From positions 1 to 23,628 of the forward strand of contig JAUNDF010000031.1 in the NCBI GenBank assembly GCA_030526225.1: a DNA stretch of 23,628 nt, read 5' to 3'. The stretch comes from Clostridia bacterium (GTDB lineage Bacteria; Bacillota; Clostridia; Christensenellales; Aristaeellaceae). The translations under genes and the position numbers were made by a program. Shown piece by piece: positions 1,145-18,608 of this stretch. Numbering within the stretch: position 1 is the first letter of the stretch; each line of letters starts with the position of its first letter. The notes below the pieces were generated by a model. It was not told where the DNA came from and made no database searches. It saw nothing but the letters and a program-made list of their open reading frames with translations.

Positions 1145-1155
1145 TTTACTCCTCC

Positions 1156-1682
1156 TCAGAAATCTACGATGATGATGATGGGAATGCCAGGCCTGCTCTT
1201 CCGGAAATTACCGCCATGCCAGCCATAGAGATGCTCATTAAAAGTAGCGGGGTAAATAACCTCTCCTTTATCTGCAAGGTGCGGATACTTGATTACACTG
1301 TATGTGTGATGTCCTTGAATGGTCTTGCCGCTATGTTTCGGTTTGCTACCACTCAGTATTGACTATAATTGTTCCTGTGTCCAGCGCCGCGTACCGGGTT
1401 GTCCCGCAAGAATGCGCTCTCTCTCTTGTTCCCAAAACTTATTTACGCCTCGAGTCCTTCGTTCAGCAAGTCGCACATTACTCATATGCTGCTTATATTC
1501 ATTTTTGGTAGCGGTTTTGTTATCTACACGTCTCTTGAGTTCTCGTGCCGACAACTTGCTGATTTTTTTACAGGATGCTCCCGCAAGTCTAACCCCTTAG
1601 TTCGCAATGCGATGACATCAAAGTTACCTACATGAAATGCACCAATTGTTCCAGTAAATAACCTGCTATTACCTTTACTCAT
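1156..1682 (-). pseudogene. GHH-signature HNH/EndoVII-fold nuclease toxin (Tox-GHH-like), interrupted by a frame change at an A7 run and by one in-frame TAG
   Basis: ATG at 1682-1680 follows RBS GGGAGGGAG. The frame changes at the A7 run (T7 on the plus strand, 1563-1569). In-frame TAG at 1363-1365. After the TAG the frame reads SGKTIQGHHTYSVIKYPHLADKGEVIYPATFNEHLYGWHGGNF, and before it ...RRWTQEQL, both typical of GHH toxins. TGA stop at 1156-1158. Confidence 0.6.
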
Positions 1683-1683
1683 A

Positions 1684-2487
1684 TCACTCCCTCCCTTCGA
1701 AGACCTGGGCGGTCTTACTACTGAAGAAAATGATATTGATTCCTCGGCTTCTCAGTTTATCGAAGCAAGCGCCTCTTGCCGAACCATAAACCAAAATGGT
1801 GTGAGGTTGGAGCTGTTTAACCATAGCGAAGAGGCCGGCTTCAAAACGTTCTCGGTTAATGAGCTTGCGAGGACCGCCTCCGACGGTCCCAATGGCAACA
1901 ATGCTGTTTTGGGGAATCCCTTCAAAGCAATAATCAAAGGTTTCTTCTGTACCCCAACGAACATTATTGATGACGGGAAGTCCATTTTTCCCGAGCCAAT
2001 ACCCATACAGGCGCATGCGATAGGTCGCATAAATCTTGATGGCCTCAGGAAAGTCTTGATACGTGGAAAAATCAGGAGTGATTGCACCGGCAAAATGACG
2101 AAGAACGCGCAGTGCTTGCTTACAGTCATGCCAGATACCACGTGGTCCATCAAACTTCTGATCGTCGATGTAGAAACACACATACGCATCGTGAGTAAAA
2201 TCATACTTCTTGAGGGCGATGTGTTTCTTATAGATCGCCTTGGCTTCTTCCCAAGTAATAAGCGCACTGGGCAAAGTCTTTGCCGTGGTTGGGCAGAAAG
2301 GGATGTCATGCTTGCCAAACATTGCACCATCTGCCATAAAGGCATTCCAGATATCCTTCAGTCCTGGTCTGACACTATCATTGACCTTTATGTTGTCATT
2401 TGGCAGAGAAACAAGGCGAATATCGGATGCCTTTATACCGCTCAGGACTGTGTCAACATCCATGTCGAACAGGGAGAGTTGATTCAT
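1684..2487 (-). CDS. DUF4417 domain protein
   Basis: 267-aa ORF. The motif block CFYIDDQKFDG...ITPDFSTYQDFPEAIKIYATYRMRLYGYWLGKNGLPVINNVRWGTEETFDYCFEGIPQNSIVAIGT matches my recollection of the DUF4417 signature (FYIDDxxF, PDFS, N/TxYR, VIPxVxWG, CFxGI). TGA stop. Confidence 0.75.
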   Translation of the reverse strand: MNQLSLFDMDVDTVLSGIKASDIRLVSLPNDNIKVNDSVRPGLKDIWNAFMADGAMFGKHDIPFCPTTAKTLPSALITWEEAKAIYKKHIALKKYDFTHDAYVCFYIDDQKFDGPRGIWHDCKQALRVLRHFAGAITPDFSTYQDFPEAIKIYATYRMRLYGYWLGKNGLPVINNVRWGTEETFDYCFEGIPQNSIVAIGTVGGGPRKLINRERFEAGLFAMVKQLQPHTILVYGSARGACFDKLRSRGINIIFFSSKTAQVFEGRE

Positions 2488-2577
2488 TATCGGTCACCAC
2501 CAAATACAGTAGTCAACACTATTTCGTGCTGCTATCTGTATTCTATCGAGAGGTGGCCGATAAGTCGTTCTGACGCA

Positions 2578-2608
2578 GTTGCGATGAAGTTGCGATGAGT
2601 AGCGATGG
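2578..2608. repeat. Three tandem 10-11 bp direct repeats GT(T/A)GCGATG(A/G)
   Basis: GTTGCGATGA at 2578-2587 and 2589-2598, GTAGCGATGG at 2599-2608. They lie in the 139-bp gap between the TIR-like gene stop and the DUF4417 start. Confidence 0.6.
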
Positions 2609-2626
2609 TTGTTATATTACATAGAA

Positions 2627-3145
2627 TTAGCTCATGATGGCATTCTTGATGGATTGATAGTCCCAATATAGTTCTCCGTCAATACCTCTATACATTGCAG
2701 CGACATGCTGCCCTTTGTATCGAAGCACTTCCGGGCACTTATTCCGATTAATGTGGGTAGCATTATAGAGAACAACAATTTTTAGCCCATCGTTGGCTGC
2801 CTTCTGACATTCATATTGGATAAAACTTCGGTAATCAATATGCATGCCGTGTGCACAGTTTGCCGTATGTGAATTATAGCAACTGCAGTACCGACAGCTA
2901 CCTTTTGTGAGCGAGTTGGTAGTTTCGCCAACTATCAGCACAAAGGTTTTTGATGCATCAAGACGTACCGCCAAGGATTTTTTAATGCTACATGGGAGGC
3001 TTGTATCCCGCGCCTGCGTTATTTCGTGTGCATCAAAAAAAGAAAGCGTCAATCTCTGGCTATTGTTCCAATAATACAAAGTATCAATCAAATCTTTGTC
3101 GCCAGTCCAGTCACCGGCAATATATGTTTTCGTCCGATAGGCCAT
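2627..3145 (-). CDS. TIR-like domain protein (DUF1863 / MTH538 TIR-like, ThsB-like) with an inserted Cys/His cluster
   Basis: 172 aa. N-terminus AYRTKTYIAGDWTGDKD...FFDAHEITQARDTSLPCSIKKSLAVRLDASKTFVLIVGETT...KCPEVL matches the DUF1863 TIR-like pattern seen in plasmid Tir and Thoeris ThsB proteins. The ATG directly abuts the upstream stop (TAAATG) and the RBS GGAGGTGGA lies inside the upstream gene. Confidence 0.7.
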   Translation of the reverse strand: MAYRTKTYIAGDWTGDKDLIDTLYYWNNSQRLTLSFFDAHEITQARDTSLPCSIKKSLAVRLDASKTFVLIVGETTNSLTKGSCRYCSCYNSHTANCAHGMHIDYRSFIQYECQKAANDGLKIVVLYNATHINRNKCPEVLRYKGQHVAAMYRGIDGELYWDYQSIKNAIMS

Positions 3146-4246
3146 TTAGTCCACCTCCATCTTTAGATCATTCATAGCTTCTTTTGAAGCTACAATCGTA
3201 ATCTGTCCTTGCAATAATTGTATATTATCCATCATTTCCTCACGGATTAGATCAAATGAGGCTTGAAAACTCAAAGCCGCGCGTGATCGGCCAGTTCCCA
3301 ACAGCGGGAGATACAATGGATAGCCATTTCCATAGCGATTATAAAATTTCAAAAGAGATAACACTGCTTTCCGAATATCGTATTCCGTACTATGGGCTAT
3401 ATTCTGTTCATCAAATGTTGAGATGGCTAGCAGATAATAGACTGCATTGCTACTATTGATAACGGCAATGCTACCGATAGCGTAATGTTTTCTTTCTGCC
3501 TGATCAACTGTGTATGTCAGCTTCTGCTTCATAAGGTTCATTTTAATTTGTGAATTTAGCTATTCAATTGTGTTGCCCGCTTTCGTCCAACGGTCAATCC
3601 ATTTTCCATGGAGTGTCGTCGGTGAAACAATAGGAGCTTCAGCACCCTCCGTTGTCCACGTGATATGTGTATCAAAAGATGTATTGACAGGAATCACTAC
3701 GATGGACGGTTGTTTCTTGCGATTGCCGAATCCGTATTTGAACAGGTCGCCTGTTATCAACTGGAGCGAATTTGTTCCACGATGCCACAGATAGTTTTCC
3801 GCTGCCGTTGTTATTCTATTGTCCAGTCTGATAGCCTCGAAGAAAGCAGCGCAGAGATAATCTGTTACATTGTTCTCAAGCCTAGACAATCGTTGCTTTG
3901 TTTCAGCAGACATCGTTGGTGTGCTATTTACAATGGCACTTATCTCTTGAATTAGGGCAGGCAGCTGCTCCTGAACAAGCGTATCATCGATGAATGCTAC
4001 AAAACCATCTTTTGTATTTTCACTGATACCGTAGGAGGACAGTGCATTTCGCATAGCAGTAGGTACATCATCCTTCTGTGACAGCAATGTACTGACACGA
4101 GATTTATTTAGGTCGAGCCTCTCTCTGTTCTTGTCCTTTATGTTGCCCGCACAGATATAAGGGGTAAATAGGTTTCGCACAAACTCTTCATCCGTTATGG
4201 ACGGGTCGATTGCTCGTTTTTTGAGTGCCGTAATGAAATATGCCAT
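3146..4246 (-). CDS. Macro-domain protein (ThsA_Macro-like) with a ~155-aa helical N-terminal domain; contains one in-frame TAG at 3560-3562
   Basis: ORFs 3560-4246 and 3146-3541 are in the same frame and separated only by a TAG. The macro-like fold spans the junction: ...LITGDLFKY...SIVVIPVNTSFDTHI...LHGKWIDRW...E[TAG]LNSQI...HYAIGSIAVI...YYLLAISTFDE...PLYLPLLGTGRSR...ITIVAS. TAA stop at 3146-3148. The RBS-like GAAGGAGGAG lies unusually far (~18 nt) from the ATG at 4246. Confidence 0.6.
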
Positions 4247-4584
4247 GCAAAACAGAGTAACACTCCTCCTTCTCAGCTTGAAAATGCATCAGCCTATGAA
4301 AGCTTCATATTCGGGTAGAAGTCGACGTGTATATCTGAGATTATGAACCATATAGAACACCGTTATCAATTATAGCACACATTCTTGCCAAAATCGATAC
4401 AAACAAAGCCTGGCCATACTCTATAGCACCAATGCAGTATGCACTATTTTTAATGCGATGTTGGTCTTTCGCTTCTAATCAACGATTTTCTCAACTGCTT
4501 TATTATATATTTTTCTTTAAGCAGGAAAAAACCGCACTTATTTTGTCCATATAAAGTAGGAGGATTAATCTTCTAACATCGTCG

Positions 4585-4616
4585 AAAGCCGTGCTGCCGC
4601 CCACGGCTTTTTTGTT
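4585..4616 (+). terminator. Plus-strand intrinsic terminator with no annotated gene upstream
   Basis: AAAGCCGTG (4585-4593) pairs with CACGGCTTT (4602-4610), followed by a T-run. On the minus strand there is no U-tract, so it is oriented plus. Confidence 0.55.
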
Positions 4617-4739
4617 GTGCGGATTTTGAATCATTCCTCCAATAATCACAGCAAGAAAGGAACAAAACCATGATGACATATCTGCTTATCAGCACCTTCT
4701 GTTACATGGCAAAAATAATCAGAAAAGGAGGAATACGGG

Positions 4740-4910
4740 ATGGCTGAAAGCATGAACATTGAAGAAATGGAAATCCCGGACGATGCCATTGAGCGCATAG
4801 CCCGGTGTTTGCTGCCTGCTTTGCAGGCTTTTTTTGAAAGCGATGAAGGAAAAGGCGAATTTGCCCGATGGCTGGCGCAGCGTGAACCGCTGAACAACCC
4901 CGCTGCCTGA
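4740..4910 (+). CDS. Small hypothetical protein (56 aa) at the head of the mobilization module
   Basis: ATG at 4740 is preceded by AAAGGAGGAAT. Translation MAESMNIEEMEIPDDAIERIARCLLPALQAFFESDEGKGEFARWLAQREPLNNPAA. TGA stop. Below the ORF-track length cutoff. Resembles small acidic proteins I recall next to Mob genes in Firmicutes elements. Confidence 0.45.
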   Translation: MAESMNIEEMEIPDDAIERIARCLLPALQAFFESDEGKGEFARWLAQREPLNNPAA

Positions 4911-5002
4911 TGGCGCGATTGCCATCACTGACAAACCAAGCATGGCCGGGTGATGGCGAAAGTGCTGTCACCCGGCGGCGCTTATTCATCAAGGAGGTTT
5001 AT

Positions 5003-5215
5003 ATGAAAGATACGGTCAAGTATGCAACGCAGCTGCTGCACCGGGTTCAGGAGCAGGATGCACGGGCGAAGGTGCGGGCAAGAAAGGCACGAACCCATCG
5101 CCTGATTGTGGAAGGCGGTACGCTGGAGAAGGTGATGCCGACGGTGATGCTGATGAATCCGGAGGAGCTGGAACGGTTCCTGCGGGACATGCTCTGCAGG
5201 GAGAAACCGGAATAA
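5003..5215 (+). CDS. DUF3847-like mobilization accessory protein (70 aa)
   Basis: ATG at 5003 follows RBS AAGGAGG. The coiled-coil basic sequence ...VQEQDARAKVRARKARTHRLIVEGGTLEKV... is typical of DUF3847 proteins found upstream of MobA/MobL relaxases. TAA stop. Confidence 0.55.
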   Translation: MKDTVKYATQLLHRVQEQDARAKVRARKARTHRLIVEGGTLEKVMPTVMLMNPEELERFLRDMLCREKPE

Positions 5216-5327
5216 TGCCGGACAGGCATATCGGCCGGGACGCTGCTGACAATCAGGCGCAGCACCATCCCGGCTTTGATGGGGGAAGCCTTCTGCGGAA
5301 GCTCCCCCAAGCCCCCTCCCCGGGGCG

Positions 5328-5421
5328 AAGGGCGCACTTACTCACCACCCGCAAGGAGCGGTGGTATCCCTGCGGGCCCGTGCGCTCTCCGAGGGGGCTG
5401 TTTCGCTCTCTGCGGAGAGCG
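5328..5421 (-). other. Putative oriT: MobQ-type nick motif with adjacent inverted repeats
   Basis: The minus strand reads GTAAGTGCGCCCTT (complement of 5328-5341). This is the RSF1010/R1162-type nick-region core TAAGTGCGCCCT. On that strand it is immediately preceded by the imperfect inverted repeat ACCACCGC-TCCTT-GCGGGTGGT. A second inverted repeat CGCTCTCCG (5383-5391) / CGGAGAGCG (5413-5421) is present. The region is GC-rich and non-coding. Confidence 0.6.
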
Positions 5422-5463
5422 ACAGGCCTCCTGCCTGATACAATGCCGAAAGGAAGGTGAAGC

Positions 5464-7113
5464 ATCTTCGCCATTTATCATTTGGAGGCCAAGGTCATCA
5501 GCCGCGGAAACGGCCGCAGTGCGGTGGCAGCTGCTGCTTACGCAAGCCGTTCCAATCTTTATAACGACTATGATGGCCTTCGCCATAATTACACAAGGAA
5601 GCATGATTTGCTTTGGCAGAACATCTATCTGCCGGAAAATGCGCCGGCGGCATGGTACAATCGATAGCAATTATGGAACGCCGTGGAGGCAGAAGAGTCT
5701 ACTAAGGACAGCCGGTTGGCACGGGAATTCATCCTTGCATTGCCGGTGGAATTGGACGAAAGCCGCTGGCAGGATATCCTGACGGAATACATCCGTGATA
5801 GTTTTGTTAGCGATGGTATGTGTGCCGATGTTTCGATCCACTGTGACAATGAGGGTCACAACCCACATGCCCATCTGATGGTCACCGTTCGTCCGCTGGA
5901 TGAGCATGGCGGCTGGCAGTATAAGACAAAGAAGGAATACCTCTGTGTCCGTGATGGTGCGGAGCAAGGCTTTACGGCAGAGGAGTATGCTGCCGCGAAG
6001 GCGCTTGGATGGGAGAAGCAATATCTCTTTCAGGTGGGGAAGAAGAAAGAGTATATGACCATGGAAGCAGGGCTGGCCGGCGGATATAAGCGCACGGATA
6101 AGCATCCTAAAAGCACCAAATACGGACGGCAGAACCCCATCTCTGCCAGATGGAACAGCGAAGAACAGCTGCTTGTCTGGCGTGAACAATGGGCGATTGT
6201 GGTCAACAAATATCTGGAACAGGAAGGCTTCGCGGAACGCATCGATCACCGCAGCTTTGCATAGCGCGGCATCATGGCAGAACCAACCATCCACGAAGGC
6301 GTCGTGGCCAGAGCCCTTGAAGCGAAGGGCATCATCGCCGACCGATGCGAAATCAATCGTATCATCAAGGCGGAAAACAGACTGTTGGCAGAAAACAAAA
6401 AATCCGATGTGCCTAAACAGCAACCATCGGACAATCATCAACATGTTAATGTTATTGAGAAGTGGGAGAGCATCAGAGATGAATTGATTTTCACGCAGTA
6501 CCGGCTGGCTCTCCATCAACAACGGCGGGAATCAATCGAAGCGTTTCTTTCTCAGAAGGAACCTGACATGGCCCGGTATCGTGCAAAGAGGAACGAACTG
6601 ACAGTCCTCAAAAGCAAACGAAAAGCACTGCGGAATGAGCTGGTAAATCTCGGGATGCTCCATCCCATTCAGGCCGGAAAGCTGAACAAGAAGATTGCAG
6701 AAATCACCGAAGAAATGGAAGATGTCATCAGCGAAAGAAACATGCTGTTGACCAAGCTGGACTGCGCTGATGTGAAAGAAGCAAAAGCGTTGGAAAAGCA
6801 AATTGTTTCCGCCCATGATACTCGCAATGCCATTCTTACAAAGACCCCGCAGCTCCGTAACCGAATAGAGCAATTGTGTGCATAGTACCGGCAGGGAAGT
6901 GAACAAACGGGTAAATATGACAGTGATGCTGTTGACAGAATCCACAAAGAGCATTTGCACCGGGTTCGGGCAAAGCTGGAAAGCACCTTCGGTGAAGACT
7001 TTGATGCGCAGCTGTTTGAACGGTGTGTGACAGAGGTTGATGACATGATTCAGCATGAGCATCGGTCTGTCAAACGACATGCACAGCGTGAGTAGCGGAA
7101 TGAAATGCGTTAA
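5464..7113 (+). CDS. MobA/MobL-family (MobQ-type) relaxase; single frame with four in-frame TAG codons and no canonical start codon
   Basis: Frame 1 is continuous from 5461 to the TAA at 7111-7113. Conserved relaxase motifs span the TAGs: (F)AIYHLEAKVISRGNGRSAVAAAAYASR...WYNR[TAG]QLWNAVEAEE...LAREFILALPVEL...HNPHAHLMVTVRP...IDHRSFA[TAG]RGIMAEPTIHEG...LCA[TAG]YRQG... (69 open codons) ...QRE[TAG]RNEMR. TAGs at 5665, 6262, 6883 and 7093. The start is uncertain: ATC 5464, ATT 5473 or TTG 5482. Confidence 0.7.
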
Positions 7114-7499
7114 TCCACTTCTTCACGGAAACGCTGTGCTATTTTGGCGATTCGCTTGGTGATGGCACTGGGGGATTTCAGCCCAAGGGTTGATGCAATA
7201 TCTCCCAGTGCTTTCCCTTCGGCCCGCATCTGAAGAATCATCATGTCTTCATCAGACAGTCCTTTTTTGAATTCTTCGATGCTCGTTTTACGGACAACAT
7301 CCTCGGCGGTATGTGATGCGTATGCATCTGAATCAAAGATTTTCGCATTGTTCTCGAGCATTTGCTCCAGAGAATATACTGCCTTGACCTTGGTGTCTGA
7401 ACGCACATGCGTCCAGCGTTTCATGAAGTCCTTCACGGCATAATTATCACTGCCGTTGTAGTCTTCCAACTGGCGATTGTTCCAAACAGCATCGATCAA
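7110..7499 (-). CDS. Sigma-70 region-4 / LuxR-type HTH protein (ICE/IME-type small sigma-like regulator)
   Basis: C-terminus LSDEDMMILQMRAEGKALGDIASTLGLKSPSAITKRIAKIAQRF is a region-4-type HTH. TAA stop at 7110-7112 overlaps the relaxase TAA. The start is uncertain: TTG 7499, or ATG 7424 with AAGGA upstream, or a fusion to the upstream ORF through the TAG at 7515-7517. Confidence 0.55.
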   Translation of the reverse strand: MIDAVWNNRQLEDYNGSDNYAVKDFMKRWTHVRSDTKVKAVYSLEQMLENNAKIFDSDAYASHTAEDVVRKTSIEEFKKGLSDEDMMILQMRAEGKALGDIASTLGLKSPSAITKRIAKIAQRFREEVD

Positions 7500-7514
7500 G
7501 GGCTGAAGATTTTC

Positions 7515-8036
7515 CTACCGGATAATCATGTCAGTCAGATTACCGACGAGATTGCCGAAGTGCTTGTAATCAAGCCAAGGAACACGAACGCCCGGCGGCA
7601 TCAGAAACAGCCGCTGAAAGCTGAAGCCCATGTCTGTTTCAAACTTTTCCCGGAAGAACATCTGCAAATAATAGCTCAACCGCCACAACGGAAAATCACC
7701 GGAGTAATAGCTCCAGTCCCCGGGAATGTCACGATAGGTGCCATCCTTCAGCGGAATCTGTATGAATTGCCAGATAGACCAGGCGTAACAATCCCAGACA
7801 AGCTCAAGAAATGCATCATCCTCAATCAGCTTGACACATTCCGATGATGACAATAACTCGTTGATGTTGCGGGGAAGGGCAGCGTATTCCGGACGCTTTC
7901 CTGCCAGCTCCGACGGCAAAGCATAGAACATGGGCAGCCAGGACAGGTTCGAAGATTTCGGGATTTCGATTATCGTATCGGGCAGCACAGCGATATAACC
8001 CATAGGGCCGGGGTTTGAATGAACAGCTTCGATCAT
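7515..8036 (-). CDS. Hypothetical protein (173 aa); ends at a TAG that is in frame with the downstream HTH ORF
   Basis: ATG at 8036-8034 is preceded by AAGGGAGAA. Translation MIEAVHSNPGPMGYIAVLPDT... No family recognised. The TAG at 7515-7517 is followed by 5 sense codons and then the 7499 ORF in the same frame. Confidence 0.45.
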   Translation of the reverse strand: MIEAVHSNPGPMGYIAVLPDTIIEIPKSSNLSWLPMFYALPSELAGKRPEYAALPRNINELLSSSECVKLIEDDAFLELVWDCYAWSIWQFIQIPLKDGTYRDIPGDWSYYSGDFPLWRLSYYLQMFFREKFETDMGFSFQRLFLMPPGVRVPWLDYKHFGNLVGNLTDMIIR

Positions 8037-8150
8037 GGCATTCTCCCTTATTAGCAAATTTCGATGAATCCATTATACCATATTGACGATTAGTCTACAA
8101 CAAGCCGGCGCGTAAACCTTGATGAATCAATTTAAAATTCAAAAACAGTG

Positions 8151-8179
8151 TTGCAATAAAACGAATATCGTGTTACTAT
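8151..8179 (+). promoter_or_regulatory. Sigma-A-type promoter for the Xre/recombinase operon
   Basis: TTGCAA (8151-8156), 17-nt spacer, TACTAT (8174-8179), about 28 nt upstream of the Xre ATG. Confidence 0.5.
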
Positions 8180-8206
8180 AAGAGCATGCCTAAGGAGGTT
8201 GTACTC

Positions 8207-8566
8207 ATGAAAATTGTATCGGAACGACTCAAGAGCCTGCGTCAAAGTATGGGCATTTCCCAAGCGAAACTGGCAGAAATGTTCGGATCACGGCAAGCCA
8301 ACATCAACCGCTATGAGCATGATGAAACGCAGCCGTCCATTGCTGTACTTTGCCAGTATGCGGATTTCTTTGATGTTTCCCTTGATTACATTTGCGGACG
8401 AACAGATGAACCGCAAGGAAAGCTGTACAAGGTAGAGCCTGCCTATTCTCCTGACAAGGAGCTCATGGCGAAGTTTATCGAAATGTGTTTTGAACCTGGC
8501 TCTTTGGCCAACAAGAAGCTGCGGGAAACCATGTTGAAAATTGCGATGGAGGAAACAGAAAAATGA
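8207..8566 (+). CDS. Xre-family helix-turn-helix transcriptional regulator
   Basis: ATG at 8207 follows AAGGAGG. LKSLRQSMGISQAKLAEMFGSRQANINRYEHDETQPSIAVLCQYADFFDVSLDYICGRTD is a typical HTH_3 domain. The TGA overlaps the recombinase ATG (ATGA). Confidence 0.8.
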   Translation: MKIVSERLKSLRQSMGISQAKLAEMFGSRQANINRYEHDETQPSIAVLCQYADFFDVSLDYICGRTDEPQGKLYKVEPAYSPDKELMAKFIEMCFEPGSLANKKLRETMLKIAMEETEK

Positions 8567-10083: not shown

Positions 10084-10151
10084 AACAACAAGAAAATATC
10101 AATTCCCATTCATCGTCTGAGGCTGTGTAATCCTTCATATACAGAAACAAC

Positions 10152-10178
10152 AAAAAAGGGAAGGCCTCTGCCTTCCCT
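10152..10178 (-). terminator. Intrinsic terminator of the polyamine/aspartate kinase operon
   Basis: AGGGAAGGC (10157-10165) pairs with GCCTTCCCT (10170-10178), loop CTCT. A U-tract follows on the minus strand (A-run 10152-10157 on plus). Confidence 0.75.
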
Positions 10179-10212
10179 TAAATCATATCTTTTCAGCAAC
10201 AAACCCCATCCA

Positions 10213-11505
10213 TCACGCCGAAGCGCAATCGAAGAATTTCTTGTAAATCGCCCGGGTGCTGTCCTCGAAGCAGGCTTCTTCCACGCCGATGACAATGCTC
10301 ATGGGGCTGCCGCCCTGGTCGATAATCCGCACGTTTGTGCCGATGTCACCCACGGCGGAGAACAGCTTGCCGGAAATGCCCGGGCGGTTCATCATGCCAA
10401 AGCCGACCACGGCAATCATGGCGAAGCCGTCGGTGATTTCCAGCCTGTCCGGGTCAACGGCCTTGCGGATGTCCTGGGTCAGGGCATCACGACAGCTCTC
10501 CAGCGCGGCGGTGGGTACCACCAGCGAGAAGGCGGAAAGTCCGGTGGCCATATGCTCAAAGGCCACGCTGTACCGCTCAAGGCAGGAAAGGGTCTTGCGC
10601 ACATAGCCGACCATGGCGTTCATCTTTTCCTTTTCGATGGAGATGACGGAGAAGCCCTTGCGGCCCGCAACGCCGGTGACGGGATTGTCGTGGGTCACGT
10701 TTTCGGCGCGAATCCACGTGCCCTCTGCCTCGGGGCAGAAGGTGTTGCAGATGTGAATGGGGATGCCTGCATCCCATGCGGGGCGGACGGCATCCTCGTG
10801 GAGCACGGTAGCGCCCTGATAGGTCATCTCCTGCAGCTCTTCATAGGTGATGGTGGGGATGGTGACCGCCTGTGACACAATGCGGGGATCGGCGGTCAGG
10901 ATGCCGTTGACATCCGTCCAGTTTTCGTACACCTCGGCATGCATGGCAGCCGCAACCAGCGCGCCGGAAATGTCGCTGCCGCCGCGGCTGAAGGTGTGCA
11001 CCTGACCGTCGGGCATGGCACCGTAATAGCCGGGCAGCACGGCATGCTCCAGCTGGGACAGCTTGTCCCGCAGGGTGCGCTCTGTCTTCCGGCGGTCCAG
11101 ACGCCCCTGTTCATCGAAAAACACGCAGAACTCCGTATCCACAAAGGGCCAGCCCAGATAGGCGGCCATAATCCGTGCGGACAGGTATTCGCCGCAGGAG
11201 GCCATGTAATCCACATTGTGGCGCTGATGCTTCATCTCAGCATAGTCCTGGCTCAGGTCGATTTCGACGCCCAGTTCGCTGATAATCTCCGCAAAGCGGT
11301 CCTCAATGGGCTGAAAATCCTTTACATCACCGGTGTGATAGAACCGGATGAGATGGTCGGTGATTTTCGTGTCACCGGCATTGCGTTTTCCGGGGGCGGA
11401 AACCACCACGAAGCGCCGTTCCGGATTGGCGCGGATAATGTCCGCGGCGCGGCGGATGTTCTGTGCGTCCGCCAGGGAGGAGCCGCCGAATTTGCAGGCA
11501 ATCAT
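10213..11505 (-). CDS. Aspartate kinase
   Basis: MIACKFGGSSLADAQNIRRAADII...FVVVSAPGK... plus C-terminal ACT-like repeats. The second ATG (11505) has a GGAGGG RBS at good spacing. TGA stop. Confidence 0.85.
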   Translation of the reverse strand: MIACKFGGSSLADAQNIRRAADIIRANPERRFVVVSAPGKRNAGDTKITDHLIRFYHTGDVKDFQPIEDRFAEIISELGVEIDLSQDYAEMKHQRHNVDYMASCGEYLSARIMAAYLGWPFVDTEFCVFFDEQGRLDRRKTERTLRDKLSQLEHAVLPGYYGAMPDGQVHTFSRGGSDISGALVAAAMHAEVYENWTDVNGILTADPRIVSQAVTIPTITYEELQEMTYQGATVLHEDAVRPAWDAGIPIHICNTFCPEAEGTWIRAENVTHDNPVTGVAGRKGFSVISIEKEKMNAMVGYVRKTLSCLERYSVAFEHMATGLSAFSLVVPTAALESCRDALTQDIRKAVDPDRLEITDGFAMIAVVGFGMMNRPGISGKLFSAVGDIGTNVRIIDQGGSPMSIVIGVEEACFEDSTRAIYKKFFDCASA

Positions 11506-11553
11506 GCTTGTTCCCTCCATGCTGCGGTCCGGGGATGACCGGGCCTTATTAGT

Positions 11554-12759
11554 TTACCGCCGGCTGCCCAAGCGGCATTTGAAATCCTCATAGCCGAAGG
11601 TGCGCAGGGGCTGGATGCTGCCATCCTGTCTGCGGACAAGAATCGCAGGCAGTGGCATACCGTTGAAGGTGTTGTTTTTGCAGGTGGTGTAAATGGCCAT
11701 GTCACCAAAGAGCAGCAGCTCGCCCTCCTGCAGGGGATGGTCGAAGCTGTAGTCGCCGATGATATCGCCCGCCAGACAGGTGGGTCCGCCCAACCGGACA
11801 GTGCAGGCCTTCTCGTTTGCCTCTCCGGCATCATACAGGGGAGGACGATAGGGCATCTCAATCACATCGGGCATATGACAGGCGGCACTGGCATCAAGAA
11901 TGGCAAGGGATGTATCGCCGTTGCGGGAGGTATCCAGCACACGGGTGGCCAGATAACCGGCATTCAGGGCACAGGCTTCGCCGGGCTCCAGATACACCTG
12001 TACGCCCCATGTGTCGCGGGCATGGCAGATGCACTTCTCCAGCCGGGCCACATCGTAATCACTGCGGGTGATGTGATGGCCGCCGCCCATGTTCAGCCAC
12101 GTCATGCGGGGGAGAACATCGCCGAATTTGGCCTCTACTGCCTGCAGGGTTGTTTCCAGCGCATCGCTGTCCTGCTCGCAGAGGGTGTGGAAGTGGAGAC
12201 CGTCCAGCAGGGCGATGGTGTCCTCGTCCATGGCTGCATCCCACTGGGCGCGGGTGGTACCCAACCGGCTGCCGGGGGCGCAGGGGTCATAGATTTCATG
12301 GCCCTCCTGCGTGGAGCATTCCGGGTTGATGCGCAGACCGATGCTCTTGCCGGCTGCCTTGGCAGAAGGACCGAACTTCTTCAGCTGATTCGGGGAGTTG
12401 AACACAATGTGGTCAGCCCAGTCAAGCAGCTCGGCGAACTCATCCTCACGATAGGCGCCGCAGAAAACATGCACCTCGCCGTCAGGCATTTCCTCCCGGC
12501 CCAGCCGTGCCTCATACAGGCCGCTGGCTTCGGTGCCGGCCAGATAGGGCGCAAGCACCGGATAAAGGTCGTAGTTGGAGAAGGCCTTCTGGGCCAGCAG
12601 AATCTTTGCGCCGGTGCGCTGCATCACCCCGGCAAGCATCTCACCGTTGCGGCGCAGCATTGCTTCATCCAGAATATAGCAGGGCGTGGGCAGCGCACCG
12701 AAAAGCTCCTCCGGTGTGCTGCCGCCAAGGCCCATAAAGCAATCGCGTGTATCCATCAT
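11554..12759 (-). CDS. nspC: Carboxynorspermidine/carboxyspermidine decarboxylase
   Basis: 401 aa. TPCYILDEAMLRRN...ILLAQKAFS...GTEASGLYEARLGREE...GLRINPE...YDPCAPGSRLG matches the NspC/CANSDC family. The ATG overlaps the upstream stop by 1 nt (12759). Confidence 0.85.
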   Translation of the reverse strand: MMDTRDCFMGLGGSTPEELFGALPTPCYILDEAMLRRNGEMLAGVMQRTGAKILLAQKAFSNYDLYPVLAPYLAGTEASGLYEARLGREEMPDGEVHVFCGAYREDEFAELLDWADHIVFNSPNQLKKFGPSAKAAGKSIGLRINPECSTQEGHEIYDPCAPGSRLGTTRAQWDAAMDEDTIALLDGLHFHTLCEQDSDALETTLQAVEAKFGDVLPRMTWLNMGGGHHITRSDYDVARLEKCICHARDTWGVQVYLEPGEACALNAGYLATRVLDTSRNGDTSLAILDASAACHMPDVIEMPYRPPLYDAGEANEKACTVRLGGPTCLAGDIIGDYSFDHPLQEGELLLFGDMAIYTTCKNNTFNGMPLPAILVRRQDGSIQPLRTFGYEDFKCRLGSRR

Positions 12760-14018
12760 CAGTCCACCAGCACGGGAGCATGGTTCTCACTGCGGGGGAG
12801 ACCATACTTGTCCAGTGCATCCAGGAAAGGATCGGGATCGAACTCCTCCACGGTGTGCACGCCCTTTTCGGTCCACTTGCCGGTCAGCAGCATCAGTGCG
12901 CCGCACATGGCGGGTACGCCGGTGGTGTAGCTGATGGCCTGAGAGCCCACCTCGCGGTAGCATTCCTGATGGTCGCAGACGTTGTAGATGTAGTAGGTCT
13001 TGTCCTGACCGTCCTTCTTGCCGGTGAAGATGCAGCCGATGTTGGTCTTGCCGTGGGTACGGGGGCCAAGGCTGGCGGGATCGGGCAGCAGGGCCTTCAG
13101 GAACTTGATGGGCACAATCTCCTTGCCCTCAAACATGATGGGGGTGGTGGACAGCATGCCCACATCCTCCAGACAGCGCATGTGATCCAGATAGCTCTGA
13201 CCAAAGGTCATGAAGAAGCGGATGCGCTTTGCCTCGGGGATGTTCAGGGCGATGGACTCAATCTCCTCGTGATGCAGCAGGTACATGTCCTTCTGACCAA
13301 CCTGATCGAAATCATACTCGCGCTTGATGGACATGGCGGGGATTTCCACCCAATGGCCGTCCTCCCAGTAGCTGCCGGGAGCGCTGACCTCGCGGAGGTT
13401 GACCTCCGGGTTAAAGTTGGTGGCAAACTTGTAGCCATGGTCGCCGCCGTTGCAGTCCAGAATATCGATGGTGTCGATGGTGTCGAACTCATGCTTCTTG
13501 GCATAAGCGCAGTATGCCTGAGTAACGCCGGGGTCGAAGCCGCAGCCCAGCAGGGCGGTCAGGCCGGCATCCTCAAACTTCTGCCGGTATGCCCACTGCC
13601 AGCTGTAATCAAAGTAGGCAGAGAAGCCGGCTTCCTTGCAGCGCTTTTCATAAATGGCGCGCCACTCGGGATCGTCGGTATCCTCGGGCTCGTAGTTGGC
13701 GGTATCCATGTAGTTTACGCCGCAGGCCAGGCAGGCATCCATGATGGTCAGATCCTGATAGGGCAGGGCGATGTTCATCACCAGATCGGGCTTGTAGTCG
13801 TTGATGAGCGCAATCAGCTCCTCCACCTTGTCGGCATCCACCTGAGCGGTGGTGATTTTGGTGGCGGTGTTGGGGGCCAGCTTGGCGGCCAGGGCATCGC
13901 ACTTGGACTTGGTGCGGCTGGCAATGCACAGCTCGGTGAATACCTCGCTGACCTGACAGCACTTGGAAATAGCAACCGTGGCCACGCCGCCGCAGCCGAT
14001 AACCAATACTCTGCTCAT
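12759..14018 (-). CDS. Carboxynorspermidine synthase/dehydrogenase (saccharopine dehydrogenase family)
   Basis: 419 aa. N-terminal Rossmann motif VLVIGCGGVA. Full-length resemblance to CANSDH/CASDH proteins (...GCGFDPGVT...FATNFNPEVNLRE...). Adjacent to nspC. Confidence 0.8.
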   Translation of the reverse strand: MSRVLVIGCGGVATVAISKCCQVSEVFTELCIASRTKSKCDALAAKLAPNTATKITTAQVDADKVEELIALINDYKPDLVMNIALPYQDLTIMDACLACGVNYMDTANYEPEDTDDPEWRAIYEKRCKEAGFSAYFDYSWQWAYRQKFEDAGLTALLGCGFDPGVTQAYCAYAKKHEFDTIDTIDILDCNGGDHGYKFATNFNPEVNLREVSAPGSYWEDGHWVEIPAMSIKREYDFDQVGQKDMYLLHHEEIESIALNIPEAKRIRFFMTFGQSYLDHMRCLEDVGMLSTTPIMFEGKEIVPIKFLKALLPDPASLGPRTHGKTNIGCIFTGKKDGQDKTYYIYNVCDHQECYREVGSQAISYTTGVPAMCGALMLLTGKWTEKGVHTVEEFDPDPFLDALDKYGLPRSENHAPVLVD

Positions 14019-14051
14019 GATGATTTCCTCCTGTATCTATGATGTTGATTG

Positions 14052-14909
14052 TTACTTTGTCAGCAGGGCCAGCAGCAGCTCCCGCAGGACCTTGCAGGCA
14101 GTGGCGGTGGAAACGCCGGTGGTATCCAGCATGGGTGCCAGCTCGTTGACATCACAGCCGACGATATTGCACCGGGTCACCGTGCGGATGGCACCCAGCA
14201 GCTGCAGGAAGGTGATGCCGCCTGCTTCAGGGGTGCCCGTTCCGGGGAACGCGGACGGGTCAAGGCAGTCAAGGTCGATGGTGAAGTAAACCGGTGTACC
14301 GGCTGCCTTCAGCTGGGCAACGCACTCCTCCAGACCGTCAAGGGTCAGGGGATGCATATCCGTATGCTCTTTGGCAAAGCGGAATTCCTCCCGCTCACCG
14401 CTGCGGATGCAGAACTGGTGGATGCGGCCGTCGCCCACAAGGTCATGGCAGCGGCGCAGCACGCAGGCATGGCTCAGCTTTGCGCCAAGGTAATCATCCC
14501 GCAGGTCTGCATGGGCATCAAAGTGGATGATGTGCACATCCGGATGATGCCGCAGCACAGCCCGGAAGCTGCCCAGGGTCACCAGATGCTCGCCGCCGAT
14601 GAGCAGGGGCAGCTTGCCATCTTTCAGGATGGTTTCCGCGCGCTCTTCGATATCTGCCAGAGCCTGCTCCGCACTGCCGAAGCACAGCTCCAGATCGCCG
14701 CTGTCGAACACGCTGTAGTCGGTCAAGTCAGCATCCTGATAGGGGCTGTAGGTCTCCAAACCAAAGCTTTCATGCCGCATGGCGGCGGAGCCGAACCGGG
14801 CGCCGGGACGGAAGGAGGTGGTGGAGTCAAAGGGAGCGCCGAACAGCACGATGGATGCATCCTCGTAGGAGGCATCGCAGCCGATAAAGGTCTCAACATT
14901 CCGTTCCAT
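14052..14909 (-). CDS. speB: Agmatinase (ureohydrolase family)
   Basis: 285 aa. Mn-binding motifs GGEHLVT, HFDAHADL, IDLDCLDPSAFPGTGTPEAGG. The ATG overlaps the speE stop by 1 nt. Confidence 0.85.
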   Translation of the reverse strand: MERNVETFIGCDASYEDASIVLFGAPFDSTTSFRPGARFGSAAMRHESFGLETYSPYQDADLTDYSVFDSGDLELCFGSAEQALADIEERAETILKDGKLPLLIGGEHLVTLGSFRAVLRHHPDVHIIHFDAHADLRDDYLGAKLSHACVLRRCHDLVGDGRIHQFCIRSGEREEFRFAKEHTDMHPLTLDGLEECVAQLKAAGTPVYFTIDLDCLDPSAFPGTGTPEAGGITFLQLLGAIRTVTRCNIVGCDVNELAPMLDTTGVSTATACKVLRELLLALLTK

Positions 14910-15763
14910 TATTCTTCAACCTCCATGAGCATTTCCTCCAGGAAGGCCGGCAGGGCAAAGGCACCCTGATGCAGCCGGGGAGTGTAGTACCGGGTGCGCA
15001 GGTTCAGGCTGTACCAATCCTCGGCATTCAGGTCGTTGATGGGATGATACTTCTTGCTGGCAAAGCCGAAGAGCCAGTAGCCGGCAGCGTAGGTGGGAAT
15101 ATGGGCCTGATACACCTTGCTGATGGGGAAGGTGTTGACGATGCGCTTGTGGCTGCGCTGCATGGCCTCTGCATCCTCGGCATAGAAGGGGCTGCCCTGC
15201 TGATTCACCATGATGCCGTCATCCTTCAGGGCGTTGTAGCAGTTGCCATAGAATTCGCGGGTGAACAGACCCTCGGAAGGGCCGAAGGGGTCGGTGGAGT
15301 CCACGATAATCAGATCGTATTCTTCCTCACGGTTGCGGATAAAGCGCAGGGCGTTTTCAAAATGGATGTGCACCCGGCGGTCATCCATGCGGCAGGCGTT
15401 TCCGGGCAGGAATTCGCGGCAGGCCTCGATAACCACCGGATCCATTTCCACCAGATCGATGCGGCGGATGCGGTCATAGCGGGTCAGCTCCCGAACCACG
15501 CCGCCGTCACCGGCACCGATGACCAGCACATCCCGGATGCCGGGATGCACCGCCATGGGCACGTGGGTAATCATTTCGTCATAGATAAATTCGTCGCGCT
15601 CTGTCAGCATGACATTGCCGTCCAAAGCCAGCACCCGGCCGAATTCGGGGGTCTCGAAAATGTCAATCTGCTGGTAGCTGCTCTTTTTGGAAAACAGATG
15701 CCGCGTCACCCGCAGGGAGTGGCGCACATGCTTGGTATGATACTCGCTGAACCACATTTCCAT
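14909..15763 (-). CDS. speE: Spermidine synthase / polyamine aminopropyltransferase
   Basis: 284 aa. WFSE...QQIDIFET..FGRVLALDG..MLTERDEFIYDEM..VLVIGAGDGGVVRE..IIVDSTDPFGP. Confidence 0.9.
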   Translation of the reverse strand: MEMWFSEYHTKHVRHSLRVTRHLFSKKSSYQQIDIFETPEFGRVLALDGNVMLTERDEFIYDEMITHVPMAVHPGIRDVLVIGAGDGGVVRELTRYDRIRRIDLVEMDPVVIEACREFLPGNACRMDDRRVHIHFENALRFIRNREEEYDLIIVDSTDPFGPSEGLFTREFYGNCYNALKDDGIMVNQQGSPFYAEDAEAMQRSHKRIVNTFPISKVYQAHIPTYAAGYWLFGFASKKYHPINDLNAEDWYSLNLRTRYYTPRLHQGAFALPAFLEEMLMEVEE

Positions 15764-15776
15764 GGCATTTTCCTCC

Positions 15777-17231
15777 TTACTTCAGCACATTGAGCCGCAG
15801 GATATCCGGGTCCTCGGGGCCGGTCATAGAGCAGCCCTTGTCCTTGGCAAACTCAATATAGTCCAGAATTTCACGGGTGATTCTCTCGCCGGGGGCCAGA
15901 ATCGGGATGCCCGGGGGATAGCACATCACAAACTCACTGCACACCTGACCCTCTGTTTCGCGAAGGGGCAGGGATACCTTCTCGGCATAGAAGGCTTCCT
16001 GCGGTGAGGTAACCACGATGGGGTCGATGTATTCCTGCTTCAGCAGGTCGGAGCTGTCCCGCTGATAGCGGCGGCGGATTTCGGCCAGTGCGCTGACGAG
16101 ACGCTCCAGCTCCTGCACACGGTCGCCCATGGACAGGTATGCCAGAATGTTGCCGATGTCGCCGAACTCAATCTGGATGTCGTATTCATCCCGCAGAATG
16201 TCATAGACCTCAATGCCCGCCAGACCGATGCTGCGGGTGTTGATGGAAAGCTTGGTGGGGTCGAAATCAAACACGGAGTTGCCGTTGCGCAGCTCCTTGC
16301 CGAAAGCGTAGTAGCCGCCGATGGCATTGACCTCTTCCCGGGCGTATTCCGCCATGTCTTCCACCCCGTGGAACACCTGACGGCCGCGCAGGGCCAGATT
16401 CCGGCGGGAGATGTCAAGGCTGGACATCAGCAGATAGCTGCCGGAGGTGGTCTGGGTCAGGTTGATAATCTGGCGCACATAGCCCGCATGGATGTTGGGG
16501 CCGCACAGCAGCAGGCTGGACTGGGTCAGGCTGCCGCCGCTTTTGTGCATGGATACGGAGGCCATATCAGCCCCGGCCTCCATGGCGGATACGGGCATGG
16601 AGGTGCCGAAGTAGAAGTGGGTGCCGTGGGCCTCGTCGGCAAGGCACAGCATACCGGCTTCGTGGGCCATGCGCACGATGGAGCGCAGGTCGGAGCAGAC
16701 ACCGTAGTAGGTGGGGTTGTTGACCAGCACGGCCACGGCGGAGGGATGCTCCCGGATGGCCTTGGCCAGACTCTCGCGGGTCATGCCCAGGGAAATGCCC
16801 AGCTTCTGGTCCACATCGGGATTGACGTAAACCGGCACCGCGCCGCACAGCACCAGCGCATTGATGACACTGCGGTGCACATTGCGGGGCAGGATGATTT
16901 CATCGCCGCGCTTGCAGGCAGTCAGCACCATGCTCTGCACAGAGCTGGTGGTGCCGCCCACCATCAGGAATGCATGAGCCGCGCCGAAGGCATCCGCCGC
17001 CAGCTCCTCAGCTTCCCGGATGACGGAAATGGGGTGGCAGAGGTTATCAAGGGGCTTCATGCTGTTTACGTCCAGGCTGACGCAGCGTTCGCCAAGGAAT
17101 GCGGTCAGCTCCGGATTGCCTCGTCCGCGCTTGTGACCGGGTACGTCAAAGGGAACGACCCGCATCTGCCGGAACCGCTGCAGCGCTTCGTAAATCGGAG
17201 CGCGGTTCTGGTCGAGTTTCATCTTCTTCAT
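15777..17231 (-). CDS. speA: Arginine (Orn/Lys/Arg family, PLP-dependent) decarboxylase
   Basis: 484 aa. Orn/Lys/Arg decarboxylase major-domain pattern with the PLP-lysine motif SMHKSGGSLTQSS. First gene of the polyamine operon, as with Bacillus-type SpeA. Confidence 0.8.
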   Translation of the reverse strand: MKKMKLDQNRAPIYEALQRFRQMRVVPFDVPGHKRGRGNPELTAFLGERCVSLDVNSMKPLDNLCHPISVIREAEELAADAFGAAHAFLMVGGTTSSVQSMVLTACKRGDEIILPRNVHRSVINALVLCGAVPVYVNPDVDQKLGISLGMTRESLAKAIREHPSAVAVLVNNPTYYGVCSDLRSIVRMAHEAGMLCLADEAHGTHFYFGTSMPVSAMEAGADMASVSMHKSGGSLTQSSLLLCGPNIHAGYVRQIINLTQTTSGSYLLMSSLDISRRNLALRGRQVFHGVEDMAEYAREEVNAIGGYYAFGKELRNGNSVFDFDPTKLSINTRSIGLAGIEVYDILRDEYDIQIEFGDIGNILAYLSMGDRVQELERLVSALAEIRRRYQRDSSDLLKQEYIDPIVVTSPQEAFYAEKVSLPLRETEGQVCSEFVMCYPPGIPILAPGERITREILDYIEFAKDKGCSMTGPEDPDILRLNVLK

Positions 17232-17649
17232 AGGCTCATCCTTCCATTACATCATCACGGGAATGAAAAAACGCAGGCCGTGCGTGTGCACAACCTGCGA
17301 TGAATTCCTGACAGAAAAAGAGCCTGTGTGGAAAAAGAAAATCGAATGAAAAATCTGTTCCGTAAGGCATGACTTCTGCTGGGGAACGGACGAGAGTCTA
17401 TATAGCAATCATACTTTTACTACTCTTATTGACCGTTTCGCAAGTGTGTGCTTTTAACACCGGCTCCATGGGGGGAGTCACTTGGGAAATTGAGCTTCTA
17501 ACTCAATCAATGAAGATACAGCGAAAGCTGCATGCGAGTTTATACCCCGCATCGGCTATTGACCCGGCTGTCCGTTCGGCCTTACTTCCCCAAAAGGGAA
17601 GGGTCATAAGTATTACGAGAAAAGGGGTTCCTTTCCTCTGTTAGTTGCC
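17232..17649 (-). promoter_or_regulatory. Long (~420 nt) structured 5' leader of the speA operon; class unassigned
   Basis: Lies between a consensus promoter and the speA ATG. No ORF of meaningful length on this strand. Several strong hairpins, e.g. GAGGAAAGG-AACC-CCTTTTCTC near the 5' end, and it ends in an intrinsic terminator. Confidence 0.5.
17265..17299 (-). terminator. Attenuator terminator about 35 nt upstream of the speA start codon
   Basis: The minus strand reads CGCAGG-TT-GTGC-ACAC-GCAC-GG-CCTGCG followed by TTTTTT. Confidence 0.65.
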
Positions 17650-17655
17650 GAGAAA

Positions 17656-17684
17656 ATTATATAAAATACCCATTGGAATGTCAA
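17656..17684 (-). promoter_or_regulatory. Consensus sigma-A promoter for the speA operon leader
   Basis: The minus strand reads TTGACA (17684-17679), exactly 17 nt, then TATAAT (17661-17656). Confidence 0.7.
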
Positions 17685-17831
17685 GCGTAAAAACGGAGAT
17701 TATCTGTTTTAACCTGCTGTGAGGCGATGGCCGATGAATGCTGTTGAACAATTCCCGATTCTGTGGTATGGTAACGGCAGATGCATTTGTGAAAACACAT
17801 ACCGGATGGAAATCCGTTTGGGGGTTGCCTT

Positions 17832-18608
17832 ATGGCCTACGATTATGACTCGTTCAAGGAAGATATCCTCTCCATGACGGATATCAACCTTGATTTCTAC
17901 AAGGAAAAACAGATGAAGCGGCGCATCAATACCAGAATGGAGCGGTATGGCTTCCATTCCTATCAGGCATATGCCCATGCGCTGGCAGCCGATGACCGGC
18001 AGTTGAAAAGCTTTGTGGATTACATCACCATCAATGTCACATAGTTTTTCCGCACGCCGGAGCACTGGCATGCGCTGGCCGACAGCGTTCTGCCGGAGCT
18101 GGTGAACCGCTTCGGCGAGGAGCTGACCGTCTGGAGCGCCGGCTGCTCCACCGGCGAGGAGCCTTATTCCCTTGCCATGCTGATGAGCAGCTTCATCGAC
18201 CCGAAGAAAATACACATCATGGCCACCGATTTGGATGAGCGTGTGCTGGACCATGCGCGGGAGGGGCGGTATTCGCCCGCAGCTGTCAGCAGAGTGCCGG
18301 TAATCTACCGGGACCGCTTTTTCCGAAAGGAGCGGGATGGCTATCAGGTGAAGGATGAAATCAGGCAGTGCGTGGAGTTCCGCAAGCTCAACCTGATATC
18401 TGACCCGTATCCGCAGTCCTGCCACCTGATTTTGTGCCGCAATGTCATGATTTACCTGACAGATGCGGCCAAAAACAGGATTTTAAGCGACTTCCAGACA
18501 AGCCTGCTGTCCGGCGGATGCCTGTTTCTGGGAAACGTGGAGCAGATTGTCTATTGCAAAACGCAGGGGTTTGTGAAGCTTCATCCCAGCATTTACCGCA
18601 AGGAATAA
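17832..18608 (+). CDS. cheR: CheR-type protein-glutamate O-methyltransferase with one in-frame TAG at 18042-18044
   Basis: ORFs 17832-18044 and 18102-18608 share a frame. The CheR motif spans the TAG: DYITINVT[TAG]FFRTPEHW...LTVWSAGCSTGEEPYSLAMLM...LILCRNVMIYL. TAA stop. Confidence 0.75.

Follow-up and report, generated by a model that had tools for sequence, protein, structure and literature searches.

Are amber codons that interrupt otherwise well-preserved genes simply lesions, or might a bacterium be translating them? The question is raised by a 23,628-nucleotide stretch of DNA (contig JAUNDF010000031.1), called the window below and making up nearly the whole of a 23,716-nucleotide contig, from the metagenome-assembled genome (MAG) of an uncultured, gut-type bacterium named 'Clostridia bacterium' (proteins MDO4483963-77, locus tags Q4C54_059xx). 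Eight in-frame internal TAG codons lie within five otherwise well-preserved genes: seven in four genes of an integrative mobilizable island (a MobA/MobL relaxase, its convergent partner, the Thoeris effector ThsA and a GHH nuclease toxin), and one in the chromosomal gene cheR. A preliminary description of this DNA had proposed that the TAGs are translated rather than products of random decay. We tentatively favor a version of that proposal, with confidence slightly short of even, in which all eight may be translated by a suppressor inserting glutamate (Glu) or glutamine (Gln), or through an early form of recoding. The type of stop, the residues replaced and the invariant residues retained support the proposal; the lack of a tRNA with anticodon CUA in the window and a frameshift in the toxin gene do not.

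Internal TAG codons in five preserved genes

Checked on the sequence, the coordinates and frames reported for the eight TAGs were all correct (Table 1), and in each case the same gene continues on the far side. Pfam domains span the TAGs in the GHH, ThsA Macro, MobA_MobL and CheR genes, and uninterrupted full-length homologues were found for the relaxase (543-570 residues), Macro protein (~350-380), GHH toxin (175), CheR (~258) and the 308-codon partner gene.

The relaxase, which shares 67% identity from end to end with its closest homologue (P0001), contains four of the TAGs. Opposite the first (site 5665), Glu stands in the two nearest homologues, P0001 and P0003 (encoded by GAG in the related locus L088), and Gly or Ser in more distant ones. 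The column at the second (6262) comprises Glu in 72 homologues, Ala in 26 and Asp in 21, with Asp (GAT) in the closest. The third (6883) faces predominantly Gln (90, with 19 Glu) and Asp in the closest homologue, while the residue opposite the fourth (7093) is not alignable. Site 7093, too, belongs inside the ancestral frame: 111 of 120 homologues end in Arg, and the window relaxase gets to its own terminal Arg-TAA only beyond that TAG, with CGTTAATCCACTTCT identical in L088.

Conservation elsewhere in the relaxase is nearly complete. Of the 108 columns that do not vary among 119 homologues, it agrees at 107, and the sole mismatch is Glu for Asp. In simulations of neutral substitution, accumulating three nonsense codons required a median of 64 substitutions and altered a median of nine invariant residues; the probability of at most one invariant change was 0.016 for three stops and 0.096 for two further stops, values that cover substitutions only and that indels would lower. 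The NCBI annotation pipeline PGAP lists one fragment of this gene as a 'hypothetical protein'.

Convergent with the relaxase lies the 308-codon gene (7110-8036), for which neither Pfam nor NCBIfam returned a match. Its TAG at 7515 had been left as an ambiguous case; the gene aligns, gap-free and with 67% identity, to one uninterrupted 308-residue gene of L088, which settles the TAG as internal, facing Glu (GAA). The reported overlap between the TAA of the relaxase and that of this gene was also confirmed, within a TTAA at 7110-7113. The same stop overlap is kept in the 67%-identical island of L088 (7571-7574).

The remaining three TAGs fall in the ThsA, cheR and GHH toxin genes. In ThsA, site 3560 faces Glu in the closest homologue (P0275), and among 150 homologues the column holds 47 Glu and 29 Asp. 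In cheR, site 18042 is Glu in 118 of 120 homologues, and the protein keeps 31 of 31 invariant columns. The GHH toxin site (1363) aligns to CAG (Gln) in locus L089, whose GHH protein (P0425) is 91% identical. The toxin gene is in three pieces, the first at 1524-1682, followed by a frameshift and then by the TAG. Comparison with L089, at 87% nucleotide identity, places a one-nucleotide deletion in the homopolymer at 1563-1569, where adding one base yields a 175-residue protein collinear with P0425. The ratio of nonsynonymous to synonymous substitution rates (dN/dS) is 0.07-0.21 in all three pieces, and hence on both sides of the TAG, although such low values mean only that the lesions are young relative to the divergence from L089. 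This gene is thus an exception to the favored reading, being separately disabled or phase-varied by its frameshift. A single extra A in the A7 run would restore exactly the VKKISK of the relative. Transcriptional slippage or phase variation could supply that base, so the toxin may not be dead but subject to switching.

Stop type and replaced residue

How improbable is this pattern under random nonsense mutation? About 45% of the single-base nonsense routes in these genes yield TAG, the commonest outcome, and the chance that all stops would be TAG is p ~0.002 if eight sites are counted and ~0.004 if seven are. The uniform stop type is thus unlikely to be random, as the preliminary description held, but it is less extreme than was implied there. 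Alignment of the TAG positions to homologues, a check that the same description had proposed, placed Glu, Asp or Gln opposite all seven alignable sites (Glu at four, an acidic residue at one, a mixture of Gln, Glu and Asp at another, and Gln at the last) and Lys, Tyr, Leu, Trp or Ser opposite none. Among codons one step from TAG in these genes, 33-44% encode Glu or Gln and 56-67% encode Lys, Tyr, Leu, Trp or Ser, such that seven Glu/Gln-like sites from seven have p ~0.0004-0.003 under random nonsense. The joint probability of an all-TAG and all-Glu/Gln ancestry is ~1e-5 to 1e-4. Across this small sample of seven aligned sites, Glu is the best single amino-acid fit.

Nor do the relaxase, cheR and GHH genes show the loss of conserved residues or the relaxed constraint of pseudogenes, judging by the 107/108 relaxase columns, the 31/31 CheR columns and the GHH dN/dS of 0.07-0.21. 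Mutational bias toward G-to-T or GC-to-AT changes was rejected as a cause; by a count from the codon table, it would not favor TAG over TAA or TGA. Two further leads were also set aside: a possible in-frame TAG in an acetyltransferase of the relative L081 proved to be conserved non-coding leader, and a crude screen of 90 loci for stop-split pairs of open reading frames (ORFs) was dropped because non-coding frames dominated it.

How UAG might be translated

If UAG were read at least part of the time, the TAG-bearing genes would still yield full-length proteins. The most likely agent would be a CUA-anticodon tRNA delivering Glu or Gln, both its existence and its amino acid being deduced from the pattern of TAG sites. 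Its gene would lie off this contig, either on the host chromosome, as a suppressor or as part of an early codon reassignment, or on a co-resident recoded phage. Most Firmicutes lack a glutaminyl-tRNA synthetase: their tRNA-Gln, like tRNA-Glu, is first loaded with Glu, and amidation follows. Because of this shared charging, a CUA mutant of either tRNA could plausibly deliver Glu or Gln. TAGs would then arise by single-base change of GAG or CAG and last only where Glu or Gln is acceptable. Such changes would be near-neutral and persist, whereas TAA and TGA nonsense codons would be purged. Release factor 1 (RF1) may be weakened or lost. In the most far-reaching form of this proposal, which we consider unlikely though worth stating, an uncultured Clostridia lineage would have made UAG a Glu (or Gln) sense codon genome-wide and in its mobile elements, and would be caught at an early stage in which the codon is still rare.

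The left flank of the island holds the only tRNA-like sequence that the searches of the window returned. Rfam matches a tRNA at 472-538 on the forward strand (30.7 bits, model positions 5-66), a match that ARAGORN does not call. Its anticodon loop, UUCGCAU, gives anticodon CGC. The remnant has no 5' acceptor strand; its 3' acceptor strand, with U70 (of the G3:U70 type) and A73, is followed by an encoded CCA and a strong terminator hairpin at ~556-606. The anticodon and the missing 5' acceptor strand rule it out as a suppressor tRNA. By these sequence features, it looks like the remnant of a tRNA-Ala gene, or of an attachment (att) site. An element-borne CUA tRNA, as would be expected of recoding of the code-15 type (TAG = Gln), is thus not borne out, the CGC remnant lying outside the island.

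Evidence that weighs against translation

Several points weigh against translation of the TAGs, beginning with a low prior. In the literature searched, the established reassignments of stop codons in bacteria all concern UGA, Shulgina and Eddy (2021) state that all known bacterial changes reassign UGA, and no report turned up of a bacterium that had given UAG over to a standard amino acid. The evidence base, moreover, is one contig of one MAG. Both the organism and the island have been seen once: exact look-ups of six window proteins gave no record beyond the Logan contig described below and names of NCBI clusters, the four island proteins found in a database look-up each form a 90%-identity cluster with one member, and the nearest database relatives are distant (best identities 54% for CheR, 67% for the relaxase and 62% for the Macro protein).

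Decoding machinery is likewise missing from view. ARAGORN predicts no tRNA in the window, and hence none with anticodon CUA, and the island has no tRNA gene at all. Since neither ARAGORN nor Rfam finds a tRNA(CUA) in the window, the island carries no suppressor of its own.

The disuse of TAG as a terminator, which the preliminary description had counted in favor of recoding, is real but uninformative. Of the 21 gene ends that can be read, 14 are TAA and 7 are TGA, yet this absence carries no statistical weight: 13 of 45 comparable Clostridia loci (29%) also have no TAG terminator. The pooled share of TAG among terminators of long ORFs in those 45 loci is 16%, and in the nearest relative, L081, none of 17 gene ends is TAG.

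Lesions of other kinds show that decay does occur here. The earlier claim that conserved genes are interrupted only by TAG, and never by frameshifts, fails on the GHH deletion and on a TGA (34-36) in the LysR-type fragment at the left edge of the window. This TGA is possibly a nonsense codon, a frameshift or a truncation, with only 33 bases lying upstream. Another frame just upstream of it also reads like a LysR motif.

Finally, the TAGs are unevenly distributed. Their reported concentration in the island holds up, with seven in 2631 island codons against one in 4084 chromosomal codons (p = 0.007), and such enrichment is not directly predicted by a uniform, host-wide code change. The enrichment is weaker if the highly conserved and seemingly horizontally shared polyamine operon (see below) is set aside.

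Ordinary loss of function and other explanations

These same lesions lead to the most serious rival, ordinary loss of function, a real possibility that we nevertheless place clearly below even. Here the island would be decaying, or its costly genes (the relaxase and its partner, the Thoeris effector and the nuclease toxin) would be selected out; cheR would be an unrelated recent pseudogene; and the TAG and Glu/Gln pattern would be coincidence. Loss of function accommodates the frameshift that accompanies a TAG in the GHH gene, the TGA-bearing LysR fragment and truncated tRNA remnant at the left flank, the concentration of TAGs in the island and the lack of a suppressor tRNA in the window. Nonsense changes in these genes give TAG more often than either other stop, TAG is one step from both GAG and CAG, and low dN/dS need mean only that the lesions are recent. 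What it must leave to coincidence, however, is considerable: the joint probability of uniform stop type and uniform ancestry given above, and three or four stops in an indel-free relaxase that keeps 107 of 108 invariant residues (p ~0.016-0.1). It must also explain eight nonsense lesions against one frameshift, a ratio unusual for bacterial pseudogenes.

Alternatively, recoding could be restricted to the island and conditional on a helper, an explanation we regard as improbable. A helper, such as a code-15-type phage, would supply the suppressor tRNA and thereby gate transfer, defense and toxin genes, with the TAG in cheR being unrelated. Seven of the eight TAGs are in the island, and they spare its genes for the serine recombinase, Xre, ThsB, DUF4417 and immunity. 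Recoded gut phages with suppressor tRNAs and TAG-free early genes are documented (e.g. PMC10879173). Yet there is no tRNA gene in the island, the spread of TAGs among island genes is not significant given gene sizes (an estimate from codon counts), and the aligned residues favor Glu where code 15 expects Gln. The cheR site, at a position that is Glu in 98% of homologues, bears the same signature as the island sites. Scans of IMG/VR for relaxase relatives returned three distant loci, and all three show unbroken relaxase matches, which also counts against a helper.

Decoding of UAG as pyrrolysine (Pyl), with pylTSBCD present and the TAGs as tolerated Pyl sites, is a still fainter prospect. The machinery does occur in some bacteria, Pyl-decoding Clostridia among them, and archaeal users read TAG genome-wide and have mobile-element nucleases with internal TAGs. 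However, Pfam finds neither a pyl gene nor a methylamine methyltransferase gene in the window, bacterial Pyl has been reported in few proteins only, with TAG otherwise a stop, and insertion of a bulky lysine derivative leaves unexplained why the sites face only Glu, Asp or Gln and never Lys or Tyr.

An artefact of sequencing, assembly or strain mixture is highly improbable: although everything derives from one MAG and one run and the frameshift falls in a homopolymer, a Logan contig of run SRR24915835 is 100% identical over 4646-7036, so the three TAGs included there are not one assembler's quirk; the eight sites share no motif save a purine before the TAG and usually a pyrimidine after it; and we know of no error mode that specifically changes GAG or CAG to TAG.

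In the absence of any common motif among the eight contexts, a cause in methylation or sequencing motifs was ruled out as well. The preceding base is A at six sites and G at two, and a pyrimidine follows at seven of eight. TAG trinucleotides across the window show a similar preceding base (A 49%, G 36%, C 2%), and GAG and CAG codons, preceded by A in 25% of cases, have a context unlike that of the eight sites; this test was picked after the data had been seen and no conclusion is drawn from it. The first relaxase site reads TAG CAA TTA, by coincidence the leaky-stop motif of plant viruses, a match of unclear significance.

Gene map and surroundings

The gene map in Table 1 was built from Pfam, PADLOC and homology. 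With a serine recombinase, a MobA_MobL relaxase and, by Pfam, no type IV secretion system gene in the window, the island fits an integrative mobilizable element. Its Thoeris pair, ThsB (TIR) and ThsA (Macro), is cargo of a small mobilizable island, beside a GHH toxin and immunity pair and a DUF4417 gene; the DUF4417-GHH-immunity trio is found again in L089 at 87% nucleotide identity. The tetranucleotide CTAG is absent from 4500-23628 (~19 kb, including the relaxase-recombinase half of the island) and occurs six times in 1-4500, the stretch of lower GC content that holds the toxin and Thoeris cargo. The cargo may thus be a later acquisition than the mobility module.

Table 1. Features of the window, with TAG sites listed under the genes that contain them. 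Positions are those of the forward strand; island limits are approximate.
Feature	Position	Strand	Basis or remark
LysR-type gene fragment	1-309	+	Pfam LysR_substrate
TGA inside LysR_substrate domain of LysR-type C-terminal fragment	34-36	+	Pfam residues 10-98 = profile 115-205
tRNA-like remnant	472-538	+	Rfam
Integrative mobilizable island	~650-10150		Pfam, GC content; synteny with relative L081 begins at 10228
Immunity-like gene (island)	812-1144	-	
Tox-GHH nuclease toxin gene (island)	1156-1682	-	Pfam
TAG in Tox-GHH gene	1363-1365	-	L089 alignment
Homopolymer with 1-nucleotide deletion, GHH gene frameshift	1563-1569	-	L089 alignment; A7 coding, T7 on + strand
DUF4417 gene (island)	1684-2487	-	Pfam
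Thoeris ThsB TIR gene (island)	2627-3145	-	Pfam, PADLOC
Thoeris ThsA Macro gene, 366 codons (island)	3146-4246	-	Pfam, PADLOC, homologues
TAG in ThsA gene	3560-3562	-	Pfam and PADLOC domains span site
DUF3847 gene (island)	4910-5215	+	Pfam
MobA/MobL relaxase gene, 543 codons if TAGs are read (island)	5482-7113	+	Pfam MobA_MobL, E = 9e-83
Relaxase TAG 1, codon 62 from TTG start at 5482	5665-5667	+	Homologue alignment
Relaxase TAG 2, inside MobA_MobL domain, HRSFA-X-RGI motif	6262-6264	+	Pfam
Relaxase TAG 3, C-terminal coiled region	6883-6885	+	Alignment
Relaxase TAG 4, six codons before conserved Arg-TAA end	7093-7095	+	Homologue C-termini
308-codon gene, family unknown, convergent with relaxase (island)	7110-8036	-	L088 alignment
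TAG in 308-codon gene, helix-turn-helix-like C-terminal part	7515-7517	-	L088 alignment
Xre gene (island)	8186-8566	+	
Large serine recombinase gene (island)	8563-10083	+	Resolvase, Recombinase and Zn_ribbon_recom
Operon, 60% GC: aspartate kinase gene and polyamine genes	10213-17231	-	
cheR methyltransferase gene, 258 codons	17832-18608	+	Pfam CheR_N and CheR
TAG in cheR, TINVT-X-FFR motif	18042-18044	+	Homologue alignment
c-di-GMP (cyclic di-GMP) riboswitch	18664-18744	+	
Hybrid histidine kinase gene	19020-21872	+	
Two unknown genes	21866-23628	+/-	

To the right of the island, the polyamine genes encode a carboxynorspermidine-type decarboxylase, a saccharopine dehydrogenase-like enzyme, agmatinase, spermidine synthase and arginine decarboxylase. 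Their products recur at 67-95% identity in numerous families of Clostridia and also in Acidaminococcus and Megasphaera, and the adjoining cheR has no relative above 54%. This breadth of high protein identity suggests that the operon has been shared horizontally. The aspartate kinase gene (10213-11520) reaches 83% identity in the close relatives L081-L085 only. Relatives L081-L086, at 82% nucleotide identity, have only 10228-17606 in common with the window and no cheR there; a scan of genome contigs for the arginine decarboxylase brought up nothing but this widely shared operon (77-88% identity), without synteny to cheR. The operon is headed by the arginine/lysine decarboxylase gene, and upstream of that gene Rfam finds an SpF59/ldcC RNA motif (62.4 bits, 17552-17606, reverse strand); the non-coding leader out to ~17606 is conserved at the DNA level in L081-L086. 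The c-di-GMP-I riboswitch (60.8 bits) between cheR and the 950-residue hybrid histidine kinase, a protein with periplasmic-binding domains, presumably controls the kinase gene.

Known systems and implications

Among known systems, the locus would by analogy work most like the recoding of code-15 phages or a supE-type suppressor. Code-15 gut phages, in which a phage suppressor tRNA reads TAG as Gln, likewise have in-frame TAGs in conserved mobile-element genes and TAG-free integration and regulatory genes, and do not use TAG as a terminator, as at the 21 gene ends readable in the window; the GHH site, facing Gln, conforms to their code. Unlike them, the element here is an integrative mobilizable island without a tRNA(CUA), most sites are Glu, and the chromosomal cheR is affected too. 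The analogy drawn in the preliminary description was to TAG as Gln, which the aligned residues fit less well than Glu: Gln stands at the GHH site and is the majority residue at the third relaxase site, and the other five sites have Glu or Asp. Amber suppressor strains of the supE type, with a CUA-bearing tRNA-Gln, illustrate how a mutated Gln or Glu tRNA can decode UAG and render ambers at Glu and Gln codons tolerable. These are laboratory strains, however, and no bacterial lineage in nature is known to us, or appeared in the literature searched, in which amber codons build up like this.

Codes that turn a stop into a sense codon offer further templates. In Pyl-decoding archaea with Genetic Code 34, all TAGs are read as pyrrolysine, and mobile-element genes with internal TAGs had formerly been dismissed as inactive (bioRxiv 10.1101/2024.09.30.615893). 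The likeness to our locus lies in TAG as a low-frequency sense codon, in a coding density nearly unchanged under table 11 and in mobile-element genes taken for pseudogenes; the differences are that ours is a bacterium, that the window has no Pyl genes and that acidic or amide residues stand at the sites. The bacterial reassignments of UGA (tables 4 and 25) similarly made a stop into sense within a bacterial lineage, with a cognate tRNA and a lost release factor as hallmarks, but the codon here is UAG, which RF1 reads. Protist codes that assign UAR to Glu, such as that of Blastocrithidia (PMC12153298), also decode UAG by a mutated tRNA but are eukaryotic, and the literature searched held no UAR-to-Glu code in bacteria. 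In that same literature, phages, Pyl users and eukaryotes are the only settings in which UAG is known to be sense.

Decaying integrative and mobilizable elements are a further comparison, with interrupted relaxase, toxin and defense genes, a homopolymer frameshift and gene and tRNA remnants at the flank. The window departs from them in its uniform stop type and replaced residue, its retained conserved residues and the absence of indels from the relaxase. Should decay be the answer after all, this would be an ordinary degraded island. If instead the lineage has made UAG a sense codon for Glu or Gln throughout its genome, it would be the first bacterium known to assign UAG to a standard amino acid. 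A free-living bacterium that decodes UAG in this way would have a new natural genetic code and would offer an unusual glimpse of a code change at its beginning, while the codon is still little used. The responsible tRNA would be of interest to genetic-code engineers. Annotation pipelines would be in error where they split these genes or label them pseudogenes, and mobile elements bearing TAGs would need to be re-evaluated.

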